Shown: one piece after another, positions 17,796 to 42,022 of the stretch
Layout: each line of letters starts with the position of its first letter
How positions within the stretch are numbered: the first letter of the stretch is position 1
Source: a virus
Length of the DNA stretch: 64,000 bases
Virus record (IMG/VR): IMGVR_UViG_3300025997_000005
Direction: 5' to 3' (one strand)
Notes under the pieces: model-generated
Databases searched by the model: none
Told to the model about the DNA's origin: nothing
The model's input: only the letters and a program-made list of their open reading frames with translations
Translations under genes and position numbers: made by a program

Positions 17796-18053
17796 TGAAG
17801 ATTACGTGGAATTTTAGAGTGTTGGTCACAGAACATAAACATGCTGATGGTGAAGTGGAAACTTGGTTGGCTATTCATGAAGTTTATAGTGATGACAAAA
17901 GTAACCCCCATAGTTATACAGAAAACTCAGTTGATATTTCTGGAAATACAAAAAAAGAGTTGAAGTAGCGTATTAAAAATGAAGGAATGTTTAAACAAAC
18001 CTTATTTATGGGGTGATGATAGATTCCCACAAGAATATAAAAAAGGTGAGTAG
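17795..18053 (+). pseudogene. Phage protein (WNFRV...IHEVY...KPYLW) with internal TAG and a frameshift
   Basis: ELK*RIK, then a frameshift to MKECLNKPYLWGDDRFPQEY. Confidence 0.55.
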
Positions 18054-18273
18054 TTTTACAGACCCAATTATTAAGCAACTTAGAAAATCTATTCCTGAAT
18101 CTGAAGCAAGACTTAGACAGCTTAAGAAAGAGATAATACCTGAATTCATTAAACCATATCACGTTAGGATATGTGAATTGATGGAAGGTAATCTTGAAGC
18201 TAATATAAGGTTTCTTAAAAAGATGGAAGCGTTTAAAAATGAAGAAATGACATCGAAATTTAAAAAGAAAAAA

Positions 18274-19620
18274 ATGAATAATTTAATTGGTGTTAGTGGG
18301 GGCATTAAAGCTGGTAAAGACCTTGTAGGGCAGATGATTCAATATATTGGTGATGAAATTGCTGAACCAACATTTGAAGGCTTTCAAGAGTTTCAAGTTA
18401 CATTTACATTTACATTATATACCAAATATCAAATAAAGAAATTCGCTGATAAACTTAAAGATTGCCTATGCCTTATTTTAGGTTGTACTAGGGAACAACT
18501 TGAAGATAGAGATTATAAGAATACTGAATTAAGTGAAGATTGGTGGTATTATAAAGGAAATACTGGAATTTATCTTTATAATACTCCTTATAAAAGTAAT
18601 AAGAAATTACCTCTTATTAAATTAACTCCTAGACTTTTACTTCAATTATTAGGTACTGAATGTGGTAGAAATATTATTCATCCAAATATTTGGTGCAACT
18701 CGCTTTTTTCTGACTACACAGGAGATATTGAAACTTGGAAAAATATTAAAAGTTATGAAGGATTATACCAAATCTCTTCTTTTGGTAATGTAAAAAGTTT
18801 GGATAGAAAAATAACTTATGGTAATCATAAAGGAGAATACCACACTAGAAAAGGACAATTATTAAAACCTACTTTAAGTGGTGGATATGCAACAGTATCG
18901 TTAAGTGGAATTACTTACACTGTACATAGTTTAGTGGCTAGACATTTTTTGAAACAACCTGAAGGTAAAGATTATGTGATTAATCATATTGATTACAATA
19001 AAGAAAATAACTTTTATAAAAATCTTGAGTGGGTTAAACAAGCAGATAATGTAAGATATAATTATAAAGTAGGTAAAGCTAATATAGGAGAAAAGCAAAA
19101 AGATGCTAAACTTACAGATACTATTGTTTTACAAATTAAAGACTGGTTATTTTCTGGAAAATATACCAATACTGAAATAGCAAGAAGAGTTAATGTATCA
19201 CCTACAACTATTACAGATATAAAAAAAGGAAGGAAATGGAAGCATGTAGGTAAAGAAATAGAAGAAATTCAACCAATATTACCTGAACCTACCTCTAACT
19301 GGATTATAACTGACGTTAGATTTCCTGAAAATGAAGGTAAAGCTGTTAGTGATAGAGGCGGTTTATTGATTGGCGTTAGACGAAAATTTGGGTTAAGATT
19401 TCCAGAGTATGCATTTCGTGAAATGCCTGATGACCCATATGCCATACCATCAATGCTACAGAATGATGACGAAAAGTTATTTGATACTTTAACTCATGAG
19501 TCCGAGGTAAATATGGGTGACCATTCATGGTGTGATGTAGTAATAGAAAACAACGGAACGGTTGAAGAGTTATTCAATGAAGTTTTGAAAGCTGTTTATT
19601 ATAAAAAAGAATTAGTATGA
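18274..19620 (+). CDS. Deoxynucleoside monophosphate kinase with in-frame NUMOD4-HNH endonuclease insertion
   Basis: IGVSGGIKAGKD, FADKLK, TPRLLLQLLGTECGR, WIITDVRF, HESE, IENNGT; insert ETWKNIKSYEGLYQISSFGNVKS...HIDYNKENN...NLEWV; the listed ORF from 18013 also includes an upstream in-frame segment. Confidence 0.9.
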   Translation: MNNLIGVSGGIKAGKDLVGQMIQYIGDEIAEPTFEGFQEFQVTFTFTLYTKYQIKKFADKLKDCLCLILGCTREQLEDRDYKNTELSEDWWYYKGNTGIYLYNTPYKSNKKLPLIKLTPRLLLQLLGTECGRNIIHPNIWCNSLFSDYTGDIETWKNIKSYEGLYQISSFGNVKSLDRKITYGNHKGEYHTRKGQLLKPTLSGGYATVSLSGITYTVHSLVARHFLKQPEGKDYVINHIDYNKENNFYKNLEWVKQADNVRYNYKVGKANIGEKQKDAKLTDTIVLQIKDWLFSGKYTNTEIARRVNVSPTTITDIKKGRKWKHVGKEIEEIQPILPEPTSNWIITDVRFPENEGKAVSDRGGLLIGVRRKFGLRFPEYAFREMPDDPYAIPSMLQNDDEKLFDTLTHESEVNMGDHSWCDVVIENNGTVEELFNEVLKAVYYKKELV

Positions 19621-20729: not shown

Positions 20730-21584
20730 ATGAAATCAGTCGAAATTAAACAATCTATCACAAATCGTGACTCTCATGCCTTGAAGTCATACTTCCAAGA
20801 ACTTGCAAAAATAAAAGTTTTAAAACATGACGAAGAATACGAGATAGCTTACTTAGCCTTTAATGGTAATGAAAAAGCTAAAGAATTATTAGTAAAACAT
20901 AACCTAAGATTTGTTATAAGTGTTGCAAAACAATACGAAAAATCTCAGCTTAGACTTGAAGATTTAATCAATGAGGGTAATATAGGATTGGTTATCGCTT
21001 CATCTAAATTTGACCCATCAAGAGGTTTTAAATTCTTATCATATGCAGTATACTGGATTAGACGTTATATTTTATCTTTTATTGCTGAAAATGGTAAAAC
21101 AATTAGATTACCAAATAACAAAATTAACGTTATTACCAAGATAAAAGAAGAATTTAATATTCTTGAACAAAAATTACAAAGGTCACCATGTTATGATGAA
21201 GTTGTACATGCATTAGATGGTGTTTTTTGTGAAGAAGATGTGGCATTTTATTTTGATTCAATTGATACTCATACAATCTCTTTAGATGCTGAAATGGGTC
21301 ATGAAGGTTCAACAACAGCCTTGTATAATCTTATTCAAGAAACCAATAACATTGATGCATCACACTATCTAGATGAAGAAGATACTAAAAAACGTCAAAA
21401 CGCCATTTTAAATCTTTTAGATAAAGATATTGAGCGTGAAGTTGTTAAATTAATCTACGGTTTGGATGGGCAAGAACCTATACCGCTTAAGACAATAGGC
21501 TTCTTATTAGGTATTACAGCTGAGAGAGTTAGACAAATCAGAGATGAGTCTTTGGAGAAATTAAAATTAAATTTAGTAAAATAA
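20730..21584 (+). CDS. RNA polymerase sigma factor, RpoD/SigA family (second paralog)
   Basis: LVKHNLRFVISVAKQY, KFDPSRGFKFLSYAVYWIR, GITAERVRQI. Confidence 0.95.
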   Translation: MKSVEIKQSITNRDSHALKSYFQELAKIKVLKHDEEYEIAYLAFNGNEKAKELLVKHNLRFVISVAKQYEKSQLRLEDLINEGNIGLVIASSKFDPSRGFKFLSYAVYWIRRYILSFIAENGKTIRLPNNKINVITKIKEEFNILEQKLQRSPCYDEVVHALDGVFCEEDVAFYFDSIDTHTISLDAEMGHEGSTTALYNLIQETNNIDASHYLDEEDTKKRQNAILNLLDKDIEREVVKLIYGLDGQEPIPLKTIGFLLGITAERVRQIRDESLEKLKLNLVK

Positions 21585-22839: not shown

Positions 22840-24072
22840 CTACCCACCCACAGCATAGCTGATGGGATGGGCTTCTGGTTTCATAGAGTGTGCTTTGTTA
22901 CCAAAGTCTGATTTCCTCTCCACCTTTGTAATCGCACCAAAGTCTGATTTACTCTCCACCTTTGTAATCGCAAGTTCCTCACGATATATTTTTAACCCTT
23001 CATTTAAGATATTGGTGCTTGCATTTAAATCACGGTCTAATTTATGACCATTATTGCAAGTCCACTCTCTATCTGAAAGATTTAAGTCTTGATTTATATA
23101 TCCACAAACACTACAAGTCTTACTTGAGGGATACCAACGATTGATTTTAACAACAGTTTTATCATTCCAATTTGCTTTGTACTCAACAAATCTAACAAAC
23201 GTACCCCAACTTGCATCAGAGATATGTTTGGATAATTTTCTGTTTTTAACCATTCCTTTAATATTTAAATCTTCAAGGCATATTACATCATAATTATTTA
23301 CAATTTCATTACTTACTTTATGTAATACATCTTGCCTTGTGTTTGTGATTTTCTCGTGAATTAAGGCAACTTTGAGTTTTTGTTTTTCAAACCCATTACT
23401 ACCATTCTGTTTACGAGAAAGATGTTGTTGTGCTTTCTTTAATTTTCTTTCATATCTTTTTGTGTATCTATTATTTTTATACTTTATTCCATCAGAAGTG
23501 ATAGCAAAGTCTTTTAAACCTAAATCTATTCCAACCGATTTATAAGTTTTTTTACTTGGATGATATTCTTGTTCAGTGAAAATTGAAACAAAATACTTCC
23601 CAGTTGGAGTTTTAGATATTGTGAATTTACCCACCTCACCTTTAATTTCTCTATGAATATTCACCTTAATACCACCTTTAAATTTAGGTGCGTATATTCT
23701 GCCATCCATAACTTTAGTATGTTGTGGTACTGTAAATGTATTTTTATTCTTTTTTGATTTAAATCTTGGGAACTTAGCGTTACCTCTAAAGAAGTTCACA
23801 TAAGCGGTGTCTAAAGAGCGTAAAGCAAATTGAAGTGTTTGGCTATTCACTTCTTTCAACCAAATGGTGTCTTCTTGTTTTTTTAATTCAGTTAATGTTT
23901 TGGCTTGTCCGTAATAGTTATCGGTTTTTTTATCTGCTTGATACTGTTCCTTACGTTCATTTAAAAAGTGATTGTAAATATACCTAACACAACCAAAGTG
24001 CTTATCCAATAAGGTTTTCTGCTCCTTATTAGGTAATAATTCAAATTTATATGTTCTGTGTATATTCTTCAC
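22840..24072 (-). CDS. tnpB: RNA-guided endonuclease TnpB
   Basis: HTH_OrfB N-terminus, GIDLG, LEDL, SSKTCSVCG zinc finger, DRDLNAS. Confidence 0.95.
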   Translation of the reverse strand: MKNIHRTYKFELLPNKEQKTLLDKHFGCVRYIYNHFLNERKEQYQADKKTDNYYGQAKTLTELKKQEDTIWLKEVNSQTLQFALRSLDTAYVNFFRGNAKFPRFKSKKNKNTFTVPQHTKVMDGRIYAPKFKGGIKVNIHREIKGEVGKFTISKTPTGKYFVSIFTEQEYHPSKKTYKSVGIDLGLKDFAITSDGIKYKNNRYTKRYERKLKKAQQHLSRKQNGSNGFEKQKLKVALIHEKITNTRQDVLHKVSNEIVNNYDVICLEDLNIKGMVKNRKLSKHISDASWGTFVRFVEYKANWNDKTVVKINRWYPSSKTCSVCGYINQDLNLSDREWTCNNGHKLDRDLNASTNILNEGLKIYREELAITKVESKSDFGAITKVERKSDFGNKAHSMKPEAHPISYAVGG

Positions 24073-24973: not shown

Positions 24974-25459
24974 ATGGAAATTACAAAAACATTAGAATTC
25001 AATTCAATTAAAACAATTAGATTAATCAACAAAGACCCTTTACTTCAAAGAGTGCACATCGACAAAACTGGTACATATGGTTTTAATACCTTATTAGAAT
25101 CCGCTGAAAATGGTACGTTAACACCTAAAGAAGTTGAATCTCTTGAAACTATTCACCAAGATGTGATATTGGTTTCTGATAGGCATAAACAACTTTATCA
25201 AGAAATTAAAATTAAACCTGACACACCTAGACGTTACGGTAAGAAACAAGTCTTGGTCGAAGTTAAAAAGCAAGGTGGTAAAGCAACTTCACAACAAGAA
25301 ACGGCATTAGAAATAGCCGATTTAAAGGCTATAGCTGCTACTTTTAATAGTAGAGTTACATCTGATAGATATAAAGGCACTAACAAGCTTACAGATGAGA
25401 AACAACGTATTATCAAAGCGGCCATTAGAGACCTTAAAAAGAAATTAAAAGCAATATAA
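24974..25459 (+). CDS. Hypothetical protein
   Basis: TATCTTTG promoter upstream; 161 aa. Confidence 0.7.
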   Translation: MEITKTLEFNSIKTIRLINKDPLLQRVHIDKTGTYGFNTLLESAENGTLTPKEVESLETIHQDVILVSDRHKQLYQEIKIKPDTPRRYGKKQVLVEVKKQGGKATSQQETALEIADLKAIAATFNSRVTSDRYKGTNKLTDEKQRIIKAAIRDLKKKLKAI

Positions 25460-25718
25460 TAAGATAAATACAAAAATGAAAAGTAACACAGGACAATTGA
25501 TTAGATGTAGAAAATATAATATTAACAACAGCAATAGTAAAAACATCTAACAGTTATTGCTTATACAATTTGTTAGCCCAGTACGCTTTATTAGTAGAAT
25601 TTTAAATTTGGAATATTTATATATAAAATAAAGGACAAATGGAATTGAGAAAATTTATAAAAACAATAATCAAAGAATACTTAATGTCTGGTGCGGATTT
25701 TAAACAAAAAACTTTGAT

Positions 25719-27464
25719 ATGAAAAACGAACGTAGTAATAATATTTTTTTGAGCGAGGGCATTAACGTACTGTCTTTATTTGATGGCATTAGTTGTGGAC
25801 AAGTAGCTTTAGAACGTGCAGGAATTAAAGTAAATAAATACTTTGCTTCCGAGATTGACAAACACGCAATTAAGGTAACTCAAAGCAACCACCCAAATAC
25901 AAAACAGATTGGTGATGTAACCAAAGTAAAAGTAAAATTACTTTACTTATCGGAGGTTTATTCGTATATTTGCAATTATGATAACAATTTACAAAGCAAA
26001 ATTTCCGAATGGGAAATATTATATTGGCTTGACAAGAAATACGCTATGTCAACGAAAGTCGGAACACAAAAGTCGAATGAAGGACAAGAAGTACAAGAAT
26101 TTACCACTTTACAATGCATTGAGGAAATACGGTTTTCAAACAATAGTATGGGAAGTATTACTAAAGGTAGGAACAATACAGGAAGCAGAAAGAATGGAGA
26201 TGAAAATGATTGTAGAAAACCCTTTAAACTACAATGTAGCAGCTGGGGGTATGACTATGAGTTTCACACCCGAAATTTGCAAGAAAATATTAGAGAGTCA
26301 AAAGGGAGTGCCAAAGACAGATATTCAGAAAAAGAGAATATCACAAACATTGAAGAAAAGATTTCAAGACAAAAAGGAGAGGGATTTAATTTCAAAGAAA
26401 ACCAAAGAAGCGATGCGGACTCCAGAAGTGAGAAAGAAATACTTGGAGAGTCGGATGAAGATAGATTACGAAGAGAGGTCAAGAAAAAAGAAAGAGACCG
26501 AAAAGAAGAAGAGATTAATTCTATTGAAGAAATTATCAAAGAATTACAAAGATGGGATGAAGTTGACAAAATTGAAAAGAATTACTGGGATTTCTTACGA
26601 CTTCATAAGGAGGAACAAGTCACGGTGGTTGAGTATGAGGGAGGATTAAACGTATTTAAAGGAAGAATAGACCTTTTATGTGGTGGTTCTCCTTGCCAAG
26701 GATTTAGTTTTAGTGGTAAGCAATTGAACTTTGAAGACCCACGAAGTAAACTATTCTTTGAATTTGTTCGGTTGCTTAATGAAGTGAAGCCTAAATACTG
26801 GCTACTTGAAAATGTGGTAATGAAGCAAGAATACCAAGACGTAATAAGCCAACATTTGGGTGTTGAGCCAGTAAAATTGAATAGTTCTTTAACTTCTGCT
26901 CAAAACCGTGTGAGATTGTATTGGGCAAACTTCGATATTACTGAACCAACCGACAAAGGAATAGGACTTGAAGATATTTTGGAAGATACTGAAATGATTG
27001 GCCCAAGTGCGATACGTGGCAGAAGATTGAATAAAGCCACTATTTTAGGGCGTAGATTAGATGAACTAGGTAAACGACAAGATTATGACAAAACCATACC
27101 AATTACGCAATGCCTTGAAGTAAGAGCAACTAATCGAGATAAAAGTAATTGCCTTACTACCGTAGCAAAAGACACGGTTTTAACGACAATGGAAATAGGG
27201 CGACACCCTGACGCTTTTAATAGGAAATTACCATTTAGGAACTACAATAAAATTGAAAGGTGTAGGTTGATGAATTTGCCTGACAATTATTGTGATGAGA
27301 TAAGTGATAACCAAACAGTAAAAGCGACTGGTAATGGTTGGGAAGTTGGAATGATTACTCACATATTTAACCAAATGGCTGCCCAAGCAGACAAAGAGCG
27401 TGGGGAAGAAAAAAATATTATTACGGCTTATATGCACGAACCATCATTGAAAACGGGAACGTAG
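25719..27464 (+). CDS. DNA (cytosine-5)-methyltransferase with ~240-aa insertion encoded in an alternate frame of a nested endonuclease gene
   Basis: LSLFDG, SEID, GGSPCQ, ENV, QNRVRLYW, GNGW; insert between GDVTKVK and IDLLCGG. Confidence 0.85.
   Translation: MKNERSNNIFLSEGINVLSLFDGISCGQVALERAGIKVNKYFASEIDKHAIKVTQSNHPNTKQIGDVTKVKVKLLYLSEVYSYICNYDNNLQSKISEWEILYWLDKKYAMSTKVGTQKSNEGQEVQEFTTLQCIEEIRFSNNSMGSITKGRNNTGSRKNGDENDCRKPFKLQCSSWGYDYEFHTRNLQENIRESKGSAKDRYSEKENITNIEEKISRQKGEGFNFKENQRSDADSRSEKEILGESDEDRLRREVKKKERDRKEEEINSIEEIIKELQRWDEVDKIEKNYWDFLRLHKEEQVTVVEYEGGLNVFKGRIDLLCGGSPCQGFSFSGKQLNFEDPRSKLFFEFVRLLNEVKPKYWLLENVVMKQEYQDVISQHLGVEPVKLNSSLTSAQNRVRLYWANFDITEPTDKGIGLEDILEDTEMIGPSAIRGRRLNKATILGRRLDELGKRQDYDKTIPITQCLEVRATNRDKSNCLTTVAKDTVLTTMEIGRHPDAFNRKLPFRNYNKIERCRLMNLPDNYCDEISDNQTVKATGNGWEVGMITHIFNQMAAQADKERGEEKNIITAYMHEPSLKTGT
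25978..26649 (+). CDS. GIY-YIG homing endonuclease nested in the MTase gene (+1 frame)
   Basis: TIY...YYIGLT, R..EH, ALRKYG, E, YN; basic NUMOD3-like tail; TATATTTG at 25965-25972. Confidence 0.88.
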   Translation: MITIYKAKFPNGKYYIGLTRNTLCQRKSEHKSRMKDKKYKNLPLYNALRKYGFQTIVWEVLLKVGTIQEAERMEMKMIVENPLNYNVAAGGMTMSFTPEICKKILESQKGVPKTDIQKKRISQTLKKRFQDKKERDLISKKTKEAMRTPEVRKKYLESRMKIDYEERSRKKKETEKKKRLILLKKLSKNYKDGMKLTKLKRITGISYDFIRRNKSRWLSMRED

Positions 27465-27550
27465 CACTTGCAGCTAACGGTTGTGTGTATGAAACGTAGC
27501 CATAGTAAACAGTTGATATAAACCACAGACCTTGATTGGGTATGTTTTAT

Positions 27551-27763
27551 AAAGGAGCGTAAAACCCATTCATCGCTTTAGCGTGAATGGGATGTAAGCG
27601 ACAAAAAGATTTGACTTTTAAAAATAAAGTTGTATATTTTTATTAACTCTGGTTGTGGTATGCAGTCGGAGTATAAACAAAAACGGGATGAGGCGTTACC
27701 ATTAGGTGAGTCTGTGACCCCCGAAGCCCAACCCATCGCCTCTGGCGTGGGTGGGTAGTTCAC
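27551..27763 (+). mobile_element. Non-autonomous IS200/IS605 derivative inserted in an attC arm
   Basis: Near-identical to 8174-8386; follows TTAT. Confidence 0.85.
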
Positions 27764-27890
27764 GTTACATTTAAACCAAATCAAATTAAATCGGTTGATA
27801 ATGATGGAACTTGGGATATTGGGGATAATAACATTTTTTCTTAAATTTGTGTGGTGGGAGAAAAAATAAAACAATGAAAGATTTGAAACA

Positions 27891-28451
27891 ATGAAAGATT
27901 TGAAACAATTTATAAAAACAACGATGCGAGAATTTTTGAATGAGAATAGAGTTTATCATTTATCCGATAATCCAAATTTAAAAATTGATAAAAACTATAA
28001 CCCGAAACAAGGACAATTGGGTAAAGGTTTTTATGTAACAAAAAATATTGATGATTGGGGTATAGAATCTATTGGAAAACGTGATTATATATATGTAATA
28101 GAAAATTTTGAGGAATTAAGAATAGCCAAACCAAATGAACAACCAAATAGGGAACAACTCGTTGATTTTGGAATTAAAAATGGGTTTTATGAAATGGATA
28201 AGGTAATTAAACCTAATGGTGATGTTGTTAAGAATTTAGATGGGAATGATTTAATTAGACCTATTGAAACTGATAAATATAAAAAATATGCAACATATAT
28301 AGACCCGATGACTGGTAGTAGTATTGATTTTTTAGAACAAGAATATTTAAAATCAAAAGGCTTTGATGGCAAAGAACCATATTATAGCAGAGATGGTCAT
28401 CAAATAATTATATGGAATTATGATAAAATCAAATTAAAAAGAATTAAATAA
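27891..28451 (+). CDS. Cassette gene: leader (FIKTTMREFLNE) + ADP-ribosyltransferase-like domain
   Basis: VYH, GKGFYVT, GFDG motifs. Confidence 0.55.
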   Translation: MKDLKQFIKTTMREFLNENRVYHLSDNPNLKIDKNYNPKQGQLGKGFYVTKNIDDWGIESIGKRDYIYVIENFEELRIAKPNEQPNREQLVDFGIKNGFYEMDKVIKPNGDVVKNLDGNDLIRPIETDKYKKYATYIDPMTGSSIDFLEQEYLKSKGFDGKEPYYSRDGHQIIIWNYDKIKLKRIK

Positions 28452-28673
28452 AGTGGGTGGGATTTTCTTTTAAATTTTTCAACCGAAATGTTGGTTAGAA
28501 CGATGAACTGAACACTTACACATAACGTTTTGCGTGTATATGCCAGGTGGCGATTAGAAGCACTTACCTTTCAATTACACAGAATGTTTGATAGAAGAAC
28601 GAATGTTGAATAAACAACAGAACTCCCACTTGCATATATACCTTGTTATAACACGTTTTTAAAAATTAAAATT

Positions 28674-40936: not shown

Positions 40937-42022
40937 ATGAGCGTGGGAAAAGAAAAAATAAATGTATTGAGTTTGTTTGATGGTATTAGCTGTGGACAGA
41001 TTGCGTTAGAACGACAAGGAATTGAAGTTGAAAATTACTTTGCTTCTGAAATTGAGCCATCACCAATAAAAGTAACACAAGCAAATTATCCAAATACAAA
41101 GCAATTAGGAAGTGTTTTGACTGTAAAAGGTGCTGACTTACCAAAGATTGATTTATTGATAGGTGGAAGCCCTTGTCAAGGGTTTTCATTTGCAGGGAAG
41201 CAACTAAACTTTGATGACCCAAGAAGTAAACTGTTTTTTGAGTTTGTGAGATTGAAAAACGAATGTAATCCGACTTACTTTTTATTGGAAAATGTAAAGA
41301 TGAAAAAGGAATACCAAAATATAATTTCAAGTTATTTAGGTGTAGAGCCAATAATGATAAACTCAAATTTAGTATCAGCACAAAATAGAGTTAGGTATTA
41401 TTGGACAAACATACCAGTAAAAGGATTACCAAACGATAAAACCATCCTACTAAAAGATATTACCGAAGATGGATTGCAAAGTTTAGGTTTAGCACAAAGA
41501 GGTAGATACGATGAGAATGGGAAAGTAATTCAGAAATATGAGTTGAACGGTACAGAAAAAAGCAATGCAATGACAACCGTTGCAAAAGATACTTTGCTAT
41601 TTATACCTGTTGACAAACATTCTTCAAACTCTGGATTAGTTTGCTTGGGTGGTGTAATGAAACCAACACATAAACTTTGGCTTGATAATGGAAAATTATT
41701 ACAGCGTAATTTTTCACAAGGAAATAGAGTTTATTCAAGCAATGGAAAATCAGCAACACTAAACGCAAATAGCGGTGGGATTGGTGGAAAAACGGGACTA
41801 TATGAGATTGAGGGTGTAATTAGAAAACTAACAAGATTAGAGTGTGAAAGATTGCAAACTGTACCTGATGGATATACAAACTCAATTTCAGACACACAAG
41901 CAATTAAGGCGCTTGGTAATGGCTGGACTGTGGATGTGATTTCTTTTATTTTTTCTTTTTTGAGAGGGGAAAATTTTTTAAATTCTTTTTCTTACGAAAG
42001 TTCAATCGAAGCACAAAAGTAG
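40937..42022 (+). CDS. DNA (cytosine-5)-methyltransferase (cassette)
   Basis: LSLFDG, GGSPCQ, ENV, QNRVRYYW, RLQT, LGNGW. Confidence 0.93.
   Translation: MSVGKEKINVLSLFDGISCGQIALERQGIEVENYFASEIEPSPIKVTQANYPNTKQLGSVLTVKGADLPKIDLLIGGSPCQGFSFAGKQLNFDDPRSKLFFEFVRLKNECNPTYFLLENVKMKKEYQNIISSYLGVEPIMINSNLVSAQNRVRYYWTNIPVKGLPNDKTILLKDITEDGLQSLGLAQRGRYDENGKVIQKYELNGTEKSNAMTTVAKDTLLFIPVDKHSSNSGLVCLGGVMKPTHKLWLDNGKLLQRNFSQGNRVYSSNGKSATLNANSGGIGGKTGLYEIEGVIRKLTRLECERLQTVPDGYTNSISDTQAIKALGNGWTVDVISFIFSFLRGENFLNSFSYESSIEAQK

Follow-up and report, generated by a model that had tools for sequence, protein, structure and literature searches.

How can a homing endonuclease gene occupy the middle of a conserved coding sequence that stays open on both sides of it and through it? 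The question is raised by a locus in IMG/VR record IMGVR_UViG_3300025997_000005, a 64,000-nt viral stretch that was analysed as a whole and that we refer to as the window. At this locus, an open reading frame (ORF) of 581 amino acids (aa) encodes a C5 cytosine methyltransferase (MTase) interrupted by a long insert, and within the insert a complete gene for a GIY-YIG protein of 223 aa is read in the +1 frame relative to the MTase, as a preliminary description made from the sequence alone had recognized. The same description suggested that the nuclease spares its host gene by overprinting it instead of being spliced out. Our computational analysis supports this suggestion as regards the open frame, the mobility of the insert and the lack of a splicing signature; it departs from it in that, over most of its length, the peptide encoded by the insert in the MTase frame is not selected for its sequence, and the design has already been published for HNH endonucleases (PMC11855218). 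We consider it probable that the insert is an unspliced mobile homing-endonuclease cassette that lies in the coding sequence of a phage C5 MTase and is translated through.

A nuclease gene within an open methyltransferase frame

To delimit the insert, we compared the 581-aa ORF by BLASTP with an uninterrupted paralog carried in the same window (Table 1), which aligned with residues 13–71 and 316–579 (39% and 73% identity in the two blocks) and left residues 72–315 unmatched. Against near-identical insert-free alleles the insert comprised residues 72–316 (245 aa) and replaced a six-residue loop that precedes motif IV. The net gain is 239 aa or 717 nt, in agreement with the ~720 bp originally described between GDVTKVK and motif IV. 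Apart from the nuclease ORF, the insert has only 46 nt on the 5′ side and ~17 nt on the 3′ side. The MTase frame, reported at the outset to stay open over ~240 codons, contains no stop across all 245 codons of the insert, and the third frame contains stops at ~26 positions in the insert and 29 within the nuclease ORF.

Because all stop codons begin with T, a stop in the MTase frame requires a nuclease codon that ends in T followed by a codon that starts with AA, AG or GA, and the following nuclease codon starts in one of these ways in 95 of 223 cases. With the nuclease protein held fixed, the probability that the MTase frame is open by chance is 6e-16 under the codon usage of the window and 9e-7 under that of the nuclease ORF itself. 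None of 20,000 synonymous-codon permutations of the nuclease gave an open MTase frame (mean, 11 stops), and in the same relative frame of the other long ORFs in the window the longest open run was 39 codons. The means of avoidance is visible in the nuclease codons, of which a fraction of 0.18 have T at the third position versus 0.40 in the other genes of the window. Across 13 nested loci tested, the window included, the own-codon probability of an open frame ranged from 8e-9 to 4e-5, and third-position T in nested copies was 0.16–0.21 versus 0.28–0.37 in 10 free-standing relatives, which have 15–25 stops in the equivalent relative frame. Chance and purine-rich composition were both rejected as the cause of the open frame, since the third frame of the same DNA carries ~29 stops and the synonymous-codon null models fail to reproduce it. 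These comparisons support the view that the MTase frame is kept free of stops by selection in every nested homologue.

The nested protein matched PHROG families 314, 7168 and 5123, all homing endonucleases and one of them named for the GIY-YIG motif, with E values of 2e-16 to 6e-8, and residues Y5, Y15-I16-G17, R26, H30, E74 and N86 were invariant across 13 homologues. Its AlphaFold model, with a predicted local distance difference test (pLDDT) score of 78.7, has the order strand-strand-helix-helix-strand-helix, as in the GIY-YIG fold. In a Foldseek search the top three PDB matches were to the I-TevI catalytic domain (target-normalised template-modelling score (TM-score), 0.67–0.70; probability, 1.00), followed by T4 EndoII and UvrC, and a full-length homologue (L013) passes the Pfam GIY-YIG model PF01541 with 27.7 bits at a cut-off of 22.6. 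A sequence search of the PDB with the nuclease profile returned nothing meaningful. Nucleotide identity was lowest at the third codon position of the nuclease (0.53 versus 0.65 and 0.70). The conserved residues and the codon-position pattern support the conclusion that the nested gene is a real GIY-YIG homing endonuclease under selection.

An octamer that the preliminary description had placed 5 nt before the nuclease start codon, TATATTTG, is present at that position, within the leader of the cassette. It conforms to the TAnnTTTG pattern, which is retained in 10 of 12 nested loci. In the whole window TATATTTG occurs 22 times, 17 of them on the plus strand, versus 9.9 expected, and 22 occurrences were reached in none of 100 shuffles; this abundance fits the use of a Bacteroidota-type promoter box across this genome.

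The MTase itself retains the hallmarks of its enzyme family. PF00145 matched the 581-aa ORF with 109.7 bits, split over two stretches, and the motifs FDGISCG, GGSPCQ, ENV, QNRVR and GNGW are all present. The catalytic Cys, ENV and RxR were invariant in an alignment of 62 sequences (53 filled, that is, with the insert, and 9 insert-free). AlphaFold modelled the MTase core with pLDDT above 90, and Foldseek with the whole model retrieved the catalytic domains of DNMT3A/B (E value, 1e-15; target-normalised TM-score, 0.72–0.75); the catalytic fold is thus predicted to be intact despite the insert. The ratio of non-synonymous to synonymous substitution rates (dN/dS) in the MTase parts was 0.05–0.09 between filled alleles, the same as between filled and empty ones. 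By this measure, purifying selection on the MTase parts is strong in filled alleles.

The peptide that the insert encodes in the MTase frame behaves differently from the MTase parts over most of its length. Within the overlap, amino-acid identity was 0.376 in the MTase frame versus 0.371 in the closed third frame, and the two were equal also in three sub-regions. Purifying selection on the whole MTase-frame insert peptide was rejected, because its identity is no higher than that of a frame that cannot be read. Therefore, most of the through-read peptide is free of selection on its sequence, and only stops are excluded from it. Residues 151–266 of the insert are modelled as disordered (Table 1), and residues 151–290 are 48% charged with a hydropathy of −1.79. 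In the last ~20 insert codons (QVTVVEYEGG and LNVFKGR), it is the third position of the MTase frame that varies most (0.39 and 0.55), and further upstream the nuclease frame dominates. Such a pattern of codon positions marks the 3′ end of the insert as selected at the protein level in the host frame, including the stretch that overlaps the tail of the nuclease gene. The 3′-end residues, together with LSEVY.YIC of the leader, are predicted to form the strands that exit and re-enter the MTase sheet.

Searches for splicing elements were negative. At E values up to 10, Rfam found no intron, group I included, at 25000–28500; its sole match there was a chance-level snoRNA at 25244–25361, on the other strand and outside the insert. 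At E values up to 1, no intron was found in seven homologous loci. A group I or group II intron was rejected for the lack of a covariance-model match and for the mere 46 + 17 nt that lie beyond the nuclease ORF. Pfam found no Hint or intein domain in the 581-aa ORF. The insert starts with Val and ends with Gly-Arg followed by Ile, with no Cys, Ser or Thr nucleophile and no His-Asn end at its junctions, and an intein was rejected for want of both the domain and the junction residues. Rfam, Pfam and the junctions are thus in line with the initial remark that neither intein ends nor a non-coding intron core can be seen.

Recurrence and mobility of the cassette

The same nested layout was found in 17 distinct metagenomic loci and in ~56 predicted proteins. 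A search with the MTase-frame insert recovered the window's own protein and 59 others, with 45–71% identity over the aligned residues; all 59 contain PF00145, and 56 of them align across all 244 residues. Such a search depends on gene calls. We therefore relied also on tblastn scans of metagenome, viral and genome contigs with the nuclease protein, which are independent of them. In these scans, all loci with the nuclease between two MTase parts had no stop in the MTase frame and 21–33 stops in the third frame, including nested copies with only 34–41% identity to the window nuclease, and free-standing nuclease relatives had 10–30 stops in the same relative frame. A tblastn search of all fetched loci for both MTase parts revealed no nested copy with an MTase-frame stop. 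Stop-codon depletion in homologous inserts, which had been put forward as a check of the overprinting idea, is accordingly complete in all nested copies, and ascertainment bias from gene calling was rejected by the nuclease-based scans and the search for the two MTase parts.

Loop length is nearly fixed in both states of the gene: of 56 filled proteins, 54 have a loop of exactly 245 aa, and of 99 empty ones, 94 have a loop of 6 aa. A 49-kb contig assigned to a Sediminibacterium (Bacteroidota) genome bin carries one of the nested copies. In a maximum-likelihood tree of the nuclease, two nested clades and one free-standing gene (L017) form a clade with support of 95/95; a single origin of nesting is possible from this tree, in which the branching order within the clade is without resolution. 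L017 (1472–3009 of its contig) is the nearest free-standing relative, with 41% identity and 25 alternative-frame stops, and only 8 nt separate its nuclease gene from an uninterrupted C5 MTase gene downstream. A single-sequence scan of viral contigs with the nuclease returned distant relatives only. Among cultured phage records, the window nuclease had no match and a nuclease of the second nested clade matched only distant free-standing endonucleases.

Comparison of filled and empty alleles revealed that the cassette and its host gene have separate histories. The closest relatives of the window's 3′ MTase part are insert-free proteins of 342 aa that are 94–95% identical to it and read GDVTKVK, six residues, then IDLL. 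MTase core identity showed no correlation with insert identity across 1,596 protein pairs (Spearman coefficient, 0.05). Inserts were at least 90% identical in 566 pairs, in many of which the cores were only 44–65% identical, and one protein (P0055) shares a core of 97–99% identity with four proteins and an insert of only 44–46%. At the nucleotide level, the window and one nested locus (L005) are 87% identical in the insert and 57% in the 3′ host part. Presence or absence at one site of a conserved gene, together with a history decoupled from that gene, marks the cassette as mobile. The first 30 nt after the cassette carry a further trace: they are 60% identical to the window's own insert-free lineage versus ~90% further on, and 73–80% identical to other filled alleles. 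This flank pattern is likely to have been left by a short co-conversion tract.

In several copies the MTase frame has outlived the nuclease. The MTase of L010 is 85% identical to that of the window; its nuclease frame contains several stops, and three deletions totalling ~96 codons, all in frame for the MTase, have removed the linker part of the insert (Table 1). The nuclease of L011 has two nonsense codons, and in L076 the catalytic Arg of the nuclease is replaced by Leu. In all three the MTase frame is open. Because the frame stays open after the death of the nuclease in L010 and L011, regulation of nuclease expression cannot explain it.

The site of the cassette is also close to that of another element. 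Sister MTase alleles (P0142, P0158, P0167, P0169 and P0170) carry canonical inteins with LAGLIDADG and Hint domains, inserted at the catalytic Cys of motif IV (GGSP/C...HN/CQGFS), nine codons downstream of the cassette site. Within this MTase family, motif IV is an insertion hot spot shared by two unrelated mobile elements, and the inteins show the form that a spliced solution takes in the same family.

Two observations concern the MTase gene as such. The gene in the window is ~89% identical in nucleotide sequence to the insert-free gene of a 285-kb contig (L072), and the flanks on both sides are ~46% identical, the random level; comparison of the two loci revealed no synteny outside the MTase gene. 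Since the gene is similar and its flanks are unrelated, the MTase gene itself moves between genomic contexts. In addition, P0100–P0103, P0143 and P0158 are tandem fusions of two C5 MTase units (~590–924 aa), one unit being 62–69% identical to the window MTase.

Mechanism, alternatives and known systems

We propose that expression of the nuclease gene probably relies on a promoter and a start codon of its own, internal to the MTase gene. Stops in the MTase frame have been purged from the 245-codon cassette through the avoidance of T at nuclease third codon positions, and ribosomes translating the MTase would run straight through it. The resulting peptide would consist of a conserved 5′ strand and helix, a long charged disordered linker that is free to vary and a conserved 3′ β-hairpin; it would project from a surface loop that joins GDVTKVK to motif IV, and the Rossmann core would be undisturbed. 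Cleavage by the nuclease most likely takes place in insert-free MTase alleles, close to the conserved motif IV sequence, and repair from a filled allele would then copy in the cassette together with a short flank. From the patterns described above we infer the translation of the 581-aa product, its MTase activity, the cleavage site and the use of the promoter.

One alternative is that the insert is spliced out in spite of this, by a ribozyme not yet described or by a protein-splicing element of an atypical kind, and that the open frame is incidental or serves something else. The conserved ends of the cassette would suit such an element, and the same gene family does host spliced elements in the form of its inteins. 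However, an insert removed at the RNA level needs no 245 stop-free codons, yet 17 of 17 nested loci have them; Rfam found no intron in eight loci, only 46 + ~17 nt are available outside the nuclease ORF, the nucleophile, His-Asn end and Hint domain of a protein-splicing element are all missing, and the internal deletions of the decayed L010 are all in frame. We judge removal by splicing to be very improbable. Somewhat less remote, but still unlikely, is the idea that the frame is held open for a purpose other than an active MTase, such as throttling nuclease expression from the host transcript, preventing transcriptional polarity or giving the long protein a new role. The lack of constraint on the MTase-frame peptide across most of the insert agrees with it, as do the intact MTase paralog in the window and the description of the ShiLan methylase as dispensable (PMC11855218). 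Set against these are the low dN/dS of the filled MTase parts (0.05–0.09), the invariance of all catalytic motifs and a frame that stays open in L010 and L011 after the nuclease has died.

We give the least credence to the notion that the nuclease insertion merely inactivated the MTase, the open frame being due to chance or to recent inheritance. Homing endonuclease genes do disrupt non-essential genes, and the paralog could compensate for the loss. Chance, however, is excluded by the probabilities for the window (6e-16 to 9e-7) and for the 13 loci (8e-9 to 4e-5); the layout persists down to 35% nuclease identity, and the host parts are under purifying selection.

A translated-through cassette remains the reading that we prefer, and several points weigh against it. 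The window nuclease did not match PF01541 even at an E value of 10, and the E value of its Foldseek match to I-TevI was weak (0.025). A loop of 245 residues beside the catalytic motif could impair the MTase, and the uninterrupted paralog could reduce the need for the filled one. AlphaFold gives moderate confidence to insert residues 97–150, a region without sign of MTase-frame selection; we did not take it as a folded domain, because its MTase-frame identity equals that of the closed third frame. Finally, no stepwise route is evident from a nuclease gene with ~20–25 alternative-frame stops (~25 in L017) to a stop-free one.

I-TevI-type GIY-YIG endonucleases sit in self-splicing group I introns of phages, and the T4 Seg genes are free-standing, between genes (for a review, see PMC2988022). 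The nested nuclease resembles both in its GIY-YIG core with the same Tyr, Arg, His, Glu and Asn, in a helical linker, in a C-terminal helix-turn-helix-like module, in the targeting of a conserved stretch of a host gene and in flank co-conversion, the last two as far as the proposed mechanism goes. Unlike the intron-borne I-TevI and the intergenic Seg genes, it is contained in a coding sequence whose own, different frame is read across it. With the LAGLIDADG inteins of the same MTase family (P0142, P0158 and P0167) the cassette shares a polymorphic, in-frame insertion at motif IV that carries a homing endonuclease. Those inteins differ in having a Hint domain, a starting Cys and a terminal His-Asn followed by Cys, in being excised from the protein and in encoding the endonuclease in the host frame. 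An intein with an out-of-frame homing endonuclease is similar in that the frame of the endonuclease differs from that of the element through which the host protein is read; that carrier, however, splices, so the through-read peptide is removed.

In phage Aeh1, as the cited passages describe it, a ribonucleotide reductase gene is split by mobE (Friedrich et al. 2007, cited in PMC10448857; PMC3045599). On that description, mobE is likewise a homing endonuclease gene without intron or intein inside a host gene that keeps its function, but the Aeh1 enzyme is made as two separately translated proteins that reassemble, whereas one continuous polypeptide would be kept here.

The nearest precedents come from mycobacteriophages, in which the ShiLan domain and the Pacc40 gp60 insertion are HNH endonuclease genes concealed out of frame within DNA methylase genes (Arsenault, Gosselin and Gogarten, Genes 2025, PMC11855218); an insertion of the ShiLan type was first noted in PMC9957025. 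As in those cases, a polymorphic methylase insertion has no stop in the methylase frame, and a complete endonuclease ORF in another frame fills almost the whole of it (PMC11855218). There, too, no intron or intein signature is present, the through-read peptide is predicted to form a loop away from the core and inteins occur in the same genes. Free-standing relatives of the Pacc40 HNH endonuclease lie directly upstream of related methylase genes, as L017 does. The cassette described here is set apart by its nuclease fold, GIY-YIG and I-TevI-like instead of HNH. Its methylase is a C5 cytosine enzyme, and the cassette occurs in AT-rich, phage-like DNA from uncultured sources that carries promoter boxes of the Bacteroidota type, and on one contig in a Sediminibacterium bin, in contrast to the actinophages that carry ShiLan and Pacc40. 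The nuclease starts with ATG behind a TAnnTTTG box, whereas the ShiLan type has GTG with a proposed leaderless start. The GIY-YIG cassette thus looks like an independent, convergent variant of the ShiLan design that stands outside the ShiLan sequence family. The 2025 study (PMC11855218), itself computational, does not mention GIY-YIG, and we found no earlier GIY-YIG case of this design in the literature.

In a 2023 survey, the only arrangements given for endonuclease genes within other genes are introns, inteins and a single split gene. It is, in our judgement, an evenly balanced proposition that stop-free translated-through cassettes are a general fourth lifestyle of in-gene homing endonucleases, beside introns, inteins and gene splitting, that this lifestyle arose independently from two or more nuclease superfamilies (HNH in actinophages, GIY-YIG in the present family), and that the GIY-YIG cassette carries an evolved adaptor, an entry strand and an exit hairpin selected in the host frame, that lets it drop into any C5 MTase without destroying it. 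The published HNH design is in any case not a one-off, an unrelated nuclease superfamily having arrived at the same solution in a different phage world and in a different class of MTase. The size and diversity of the family permit measurements that are absent from the published case, namely the strength of stop avoidance, the freedom of the peptide except at its ends and the survival of the host frame after nuclease death. For annotation, the layout means that gene callers give only the long MTase and miss the nested nuclease. The locus also offers a compact system in which to test the tolerance of a loop beside a catalytic motif, the purging of stops from overlapping frames and the site at which a GIY-YIG nuclease cuts within an MTase gene.

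Feature coordinates and neighbouring genes

The coordinates of the MTase gene, the cassette and the paralog are collected in Table 1. Two of the features overlap others: the leader also contains the candidate nuclease promoter, and the nuclease gene runs, with its final codons and its stop, into the 3′ end of the cassette.

Table 1. Positions of the interrupted MTase gene, the parts of its cassette and the uninterrupted paralog in the window
Feature	Position	Strand	Basis
C5 cytosine MTase ORF, read through the insert, 581 aa	25719..27464	+	PF00145, motifs, AlphaFold core
MTase 5′ host part, aa 1–71, motif I to GDVTKVK	25719..25931	+	Nucleotide identity of 88–93% to insert-free alleles L072 and L074; dN/dS 0.04–0.18
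Mobile cassette, 735 nt = 245 MTase-frame codons, in place of an 18-nt loop	25932..26666	+	Bounds from insert-free alleles P0061 and P0066
Cassette leader, VKLLYLSEVYSYIC in the MTase frame; predicted strand and helix exiting the MTase sheet	25932..25977	+	LSEVY.YIC conserved in both nested clades; pLDDT 82–89
Candidate promoter box TATATTTG, of the TAnnTTTG (Bacteroidota −7) type	25965..25972	+	5 nt upstream of the nuclease ATG
GIY-YIG homing endonuclease gene, 223 aa, +1 frame relative to the MTase	25978..26649	+	PHROG matches, invariant residues, structure model
Disordered, highly charged linker in the MTase frame, aa 151–266	26169..26516	+	pLDDT ~25; MTase-frame identity equal to that of the closed third frame
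Cassette 3′ end, QVTVVEYEGGLNVFKGR in the MTase frame; predicted β-hairpin back into the motif IV strand	26616..26666	+	pLDDT 89–92; MTase-frame third position most variable
Start of the 3′ host part, 30 nt (IDLLCGGSPC, motif IV); flank likely to be co-converted and to belong to the nuclease target	26667..26696	+	Identity pattern against empty and filled alleles
MTase 3′ host part, motif IV to X and tail	26667..27464	+	94–95% aa identity to 342-aa insert-free proteins; dN/dS 0.05–0.09 among filled alleles
Uninterrupted paralogous C5 MTase, 361 aa; insert-free comparison within the window	40937..42022	+	PF00145, 145.6 bits in a single stretch

Downstream of the MTase stop, ~426 nt (27465–27890) contain no plus-strand ORF longer than 42 aa and fall within a 2-kb block of raised G+C; Rfam gave no match there at E values up to 10. 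The insert-free locus L072 likewise has ~400 nt without a called gene after its MTase, dissimilar in sequence to 27465–27890.

Upstream of the MTase gene, a plus-strand ORF of 535 aa (18013–19620) contains, in mid-protein and without a change of frame relative to its flanks, NUMOD4 (aa 240–298; E value, 3e-14) and HNH_3 (aa 304–348). The window may thus hold another endonuclease that is translated through, and this in-frame NUMOD4-HNH module is a hint that such unspliced inserts are common in this group of phages. A sigma-70 family factor with regions 1.2, 2 and 4 (20730–21584, plus strand) points to a large phage or mobile element that controls its own transcription. A TnpB or IS605 OrfB-type gene with OrfB_IS605, Cas12f1-like TNB and helix-turn-helix (HTH) domains (22840–24072) is the sole minus-strand ORF of at least 200 aa listed in the window.

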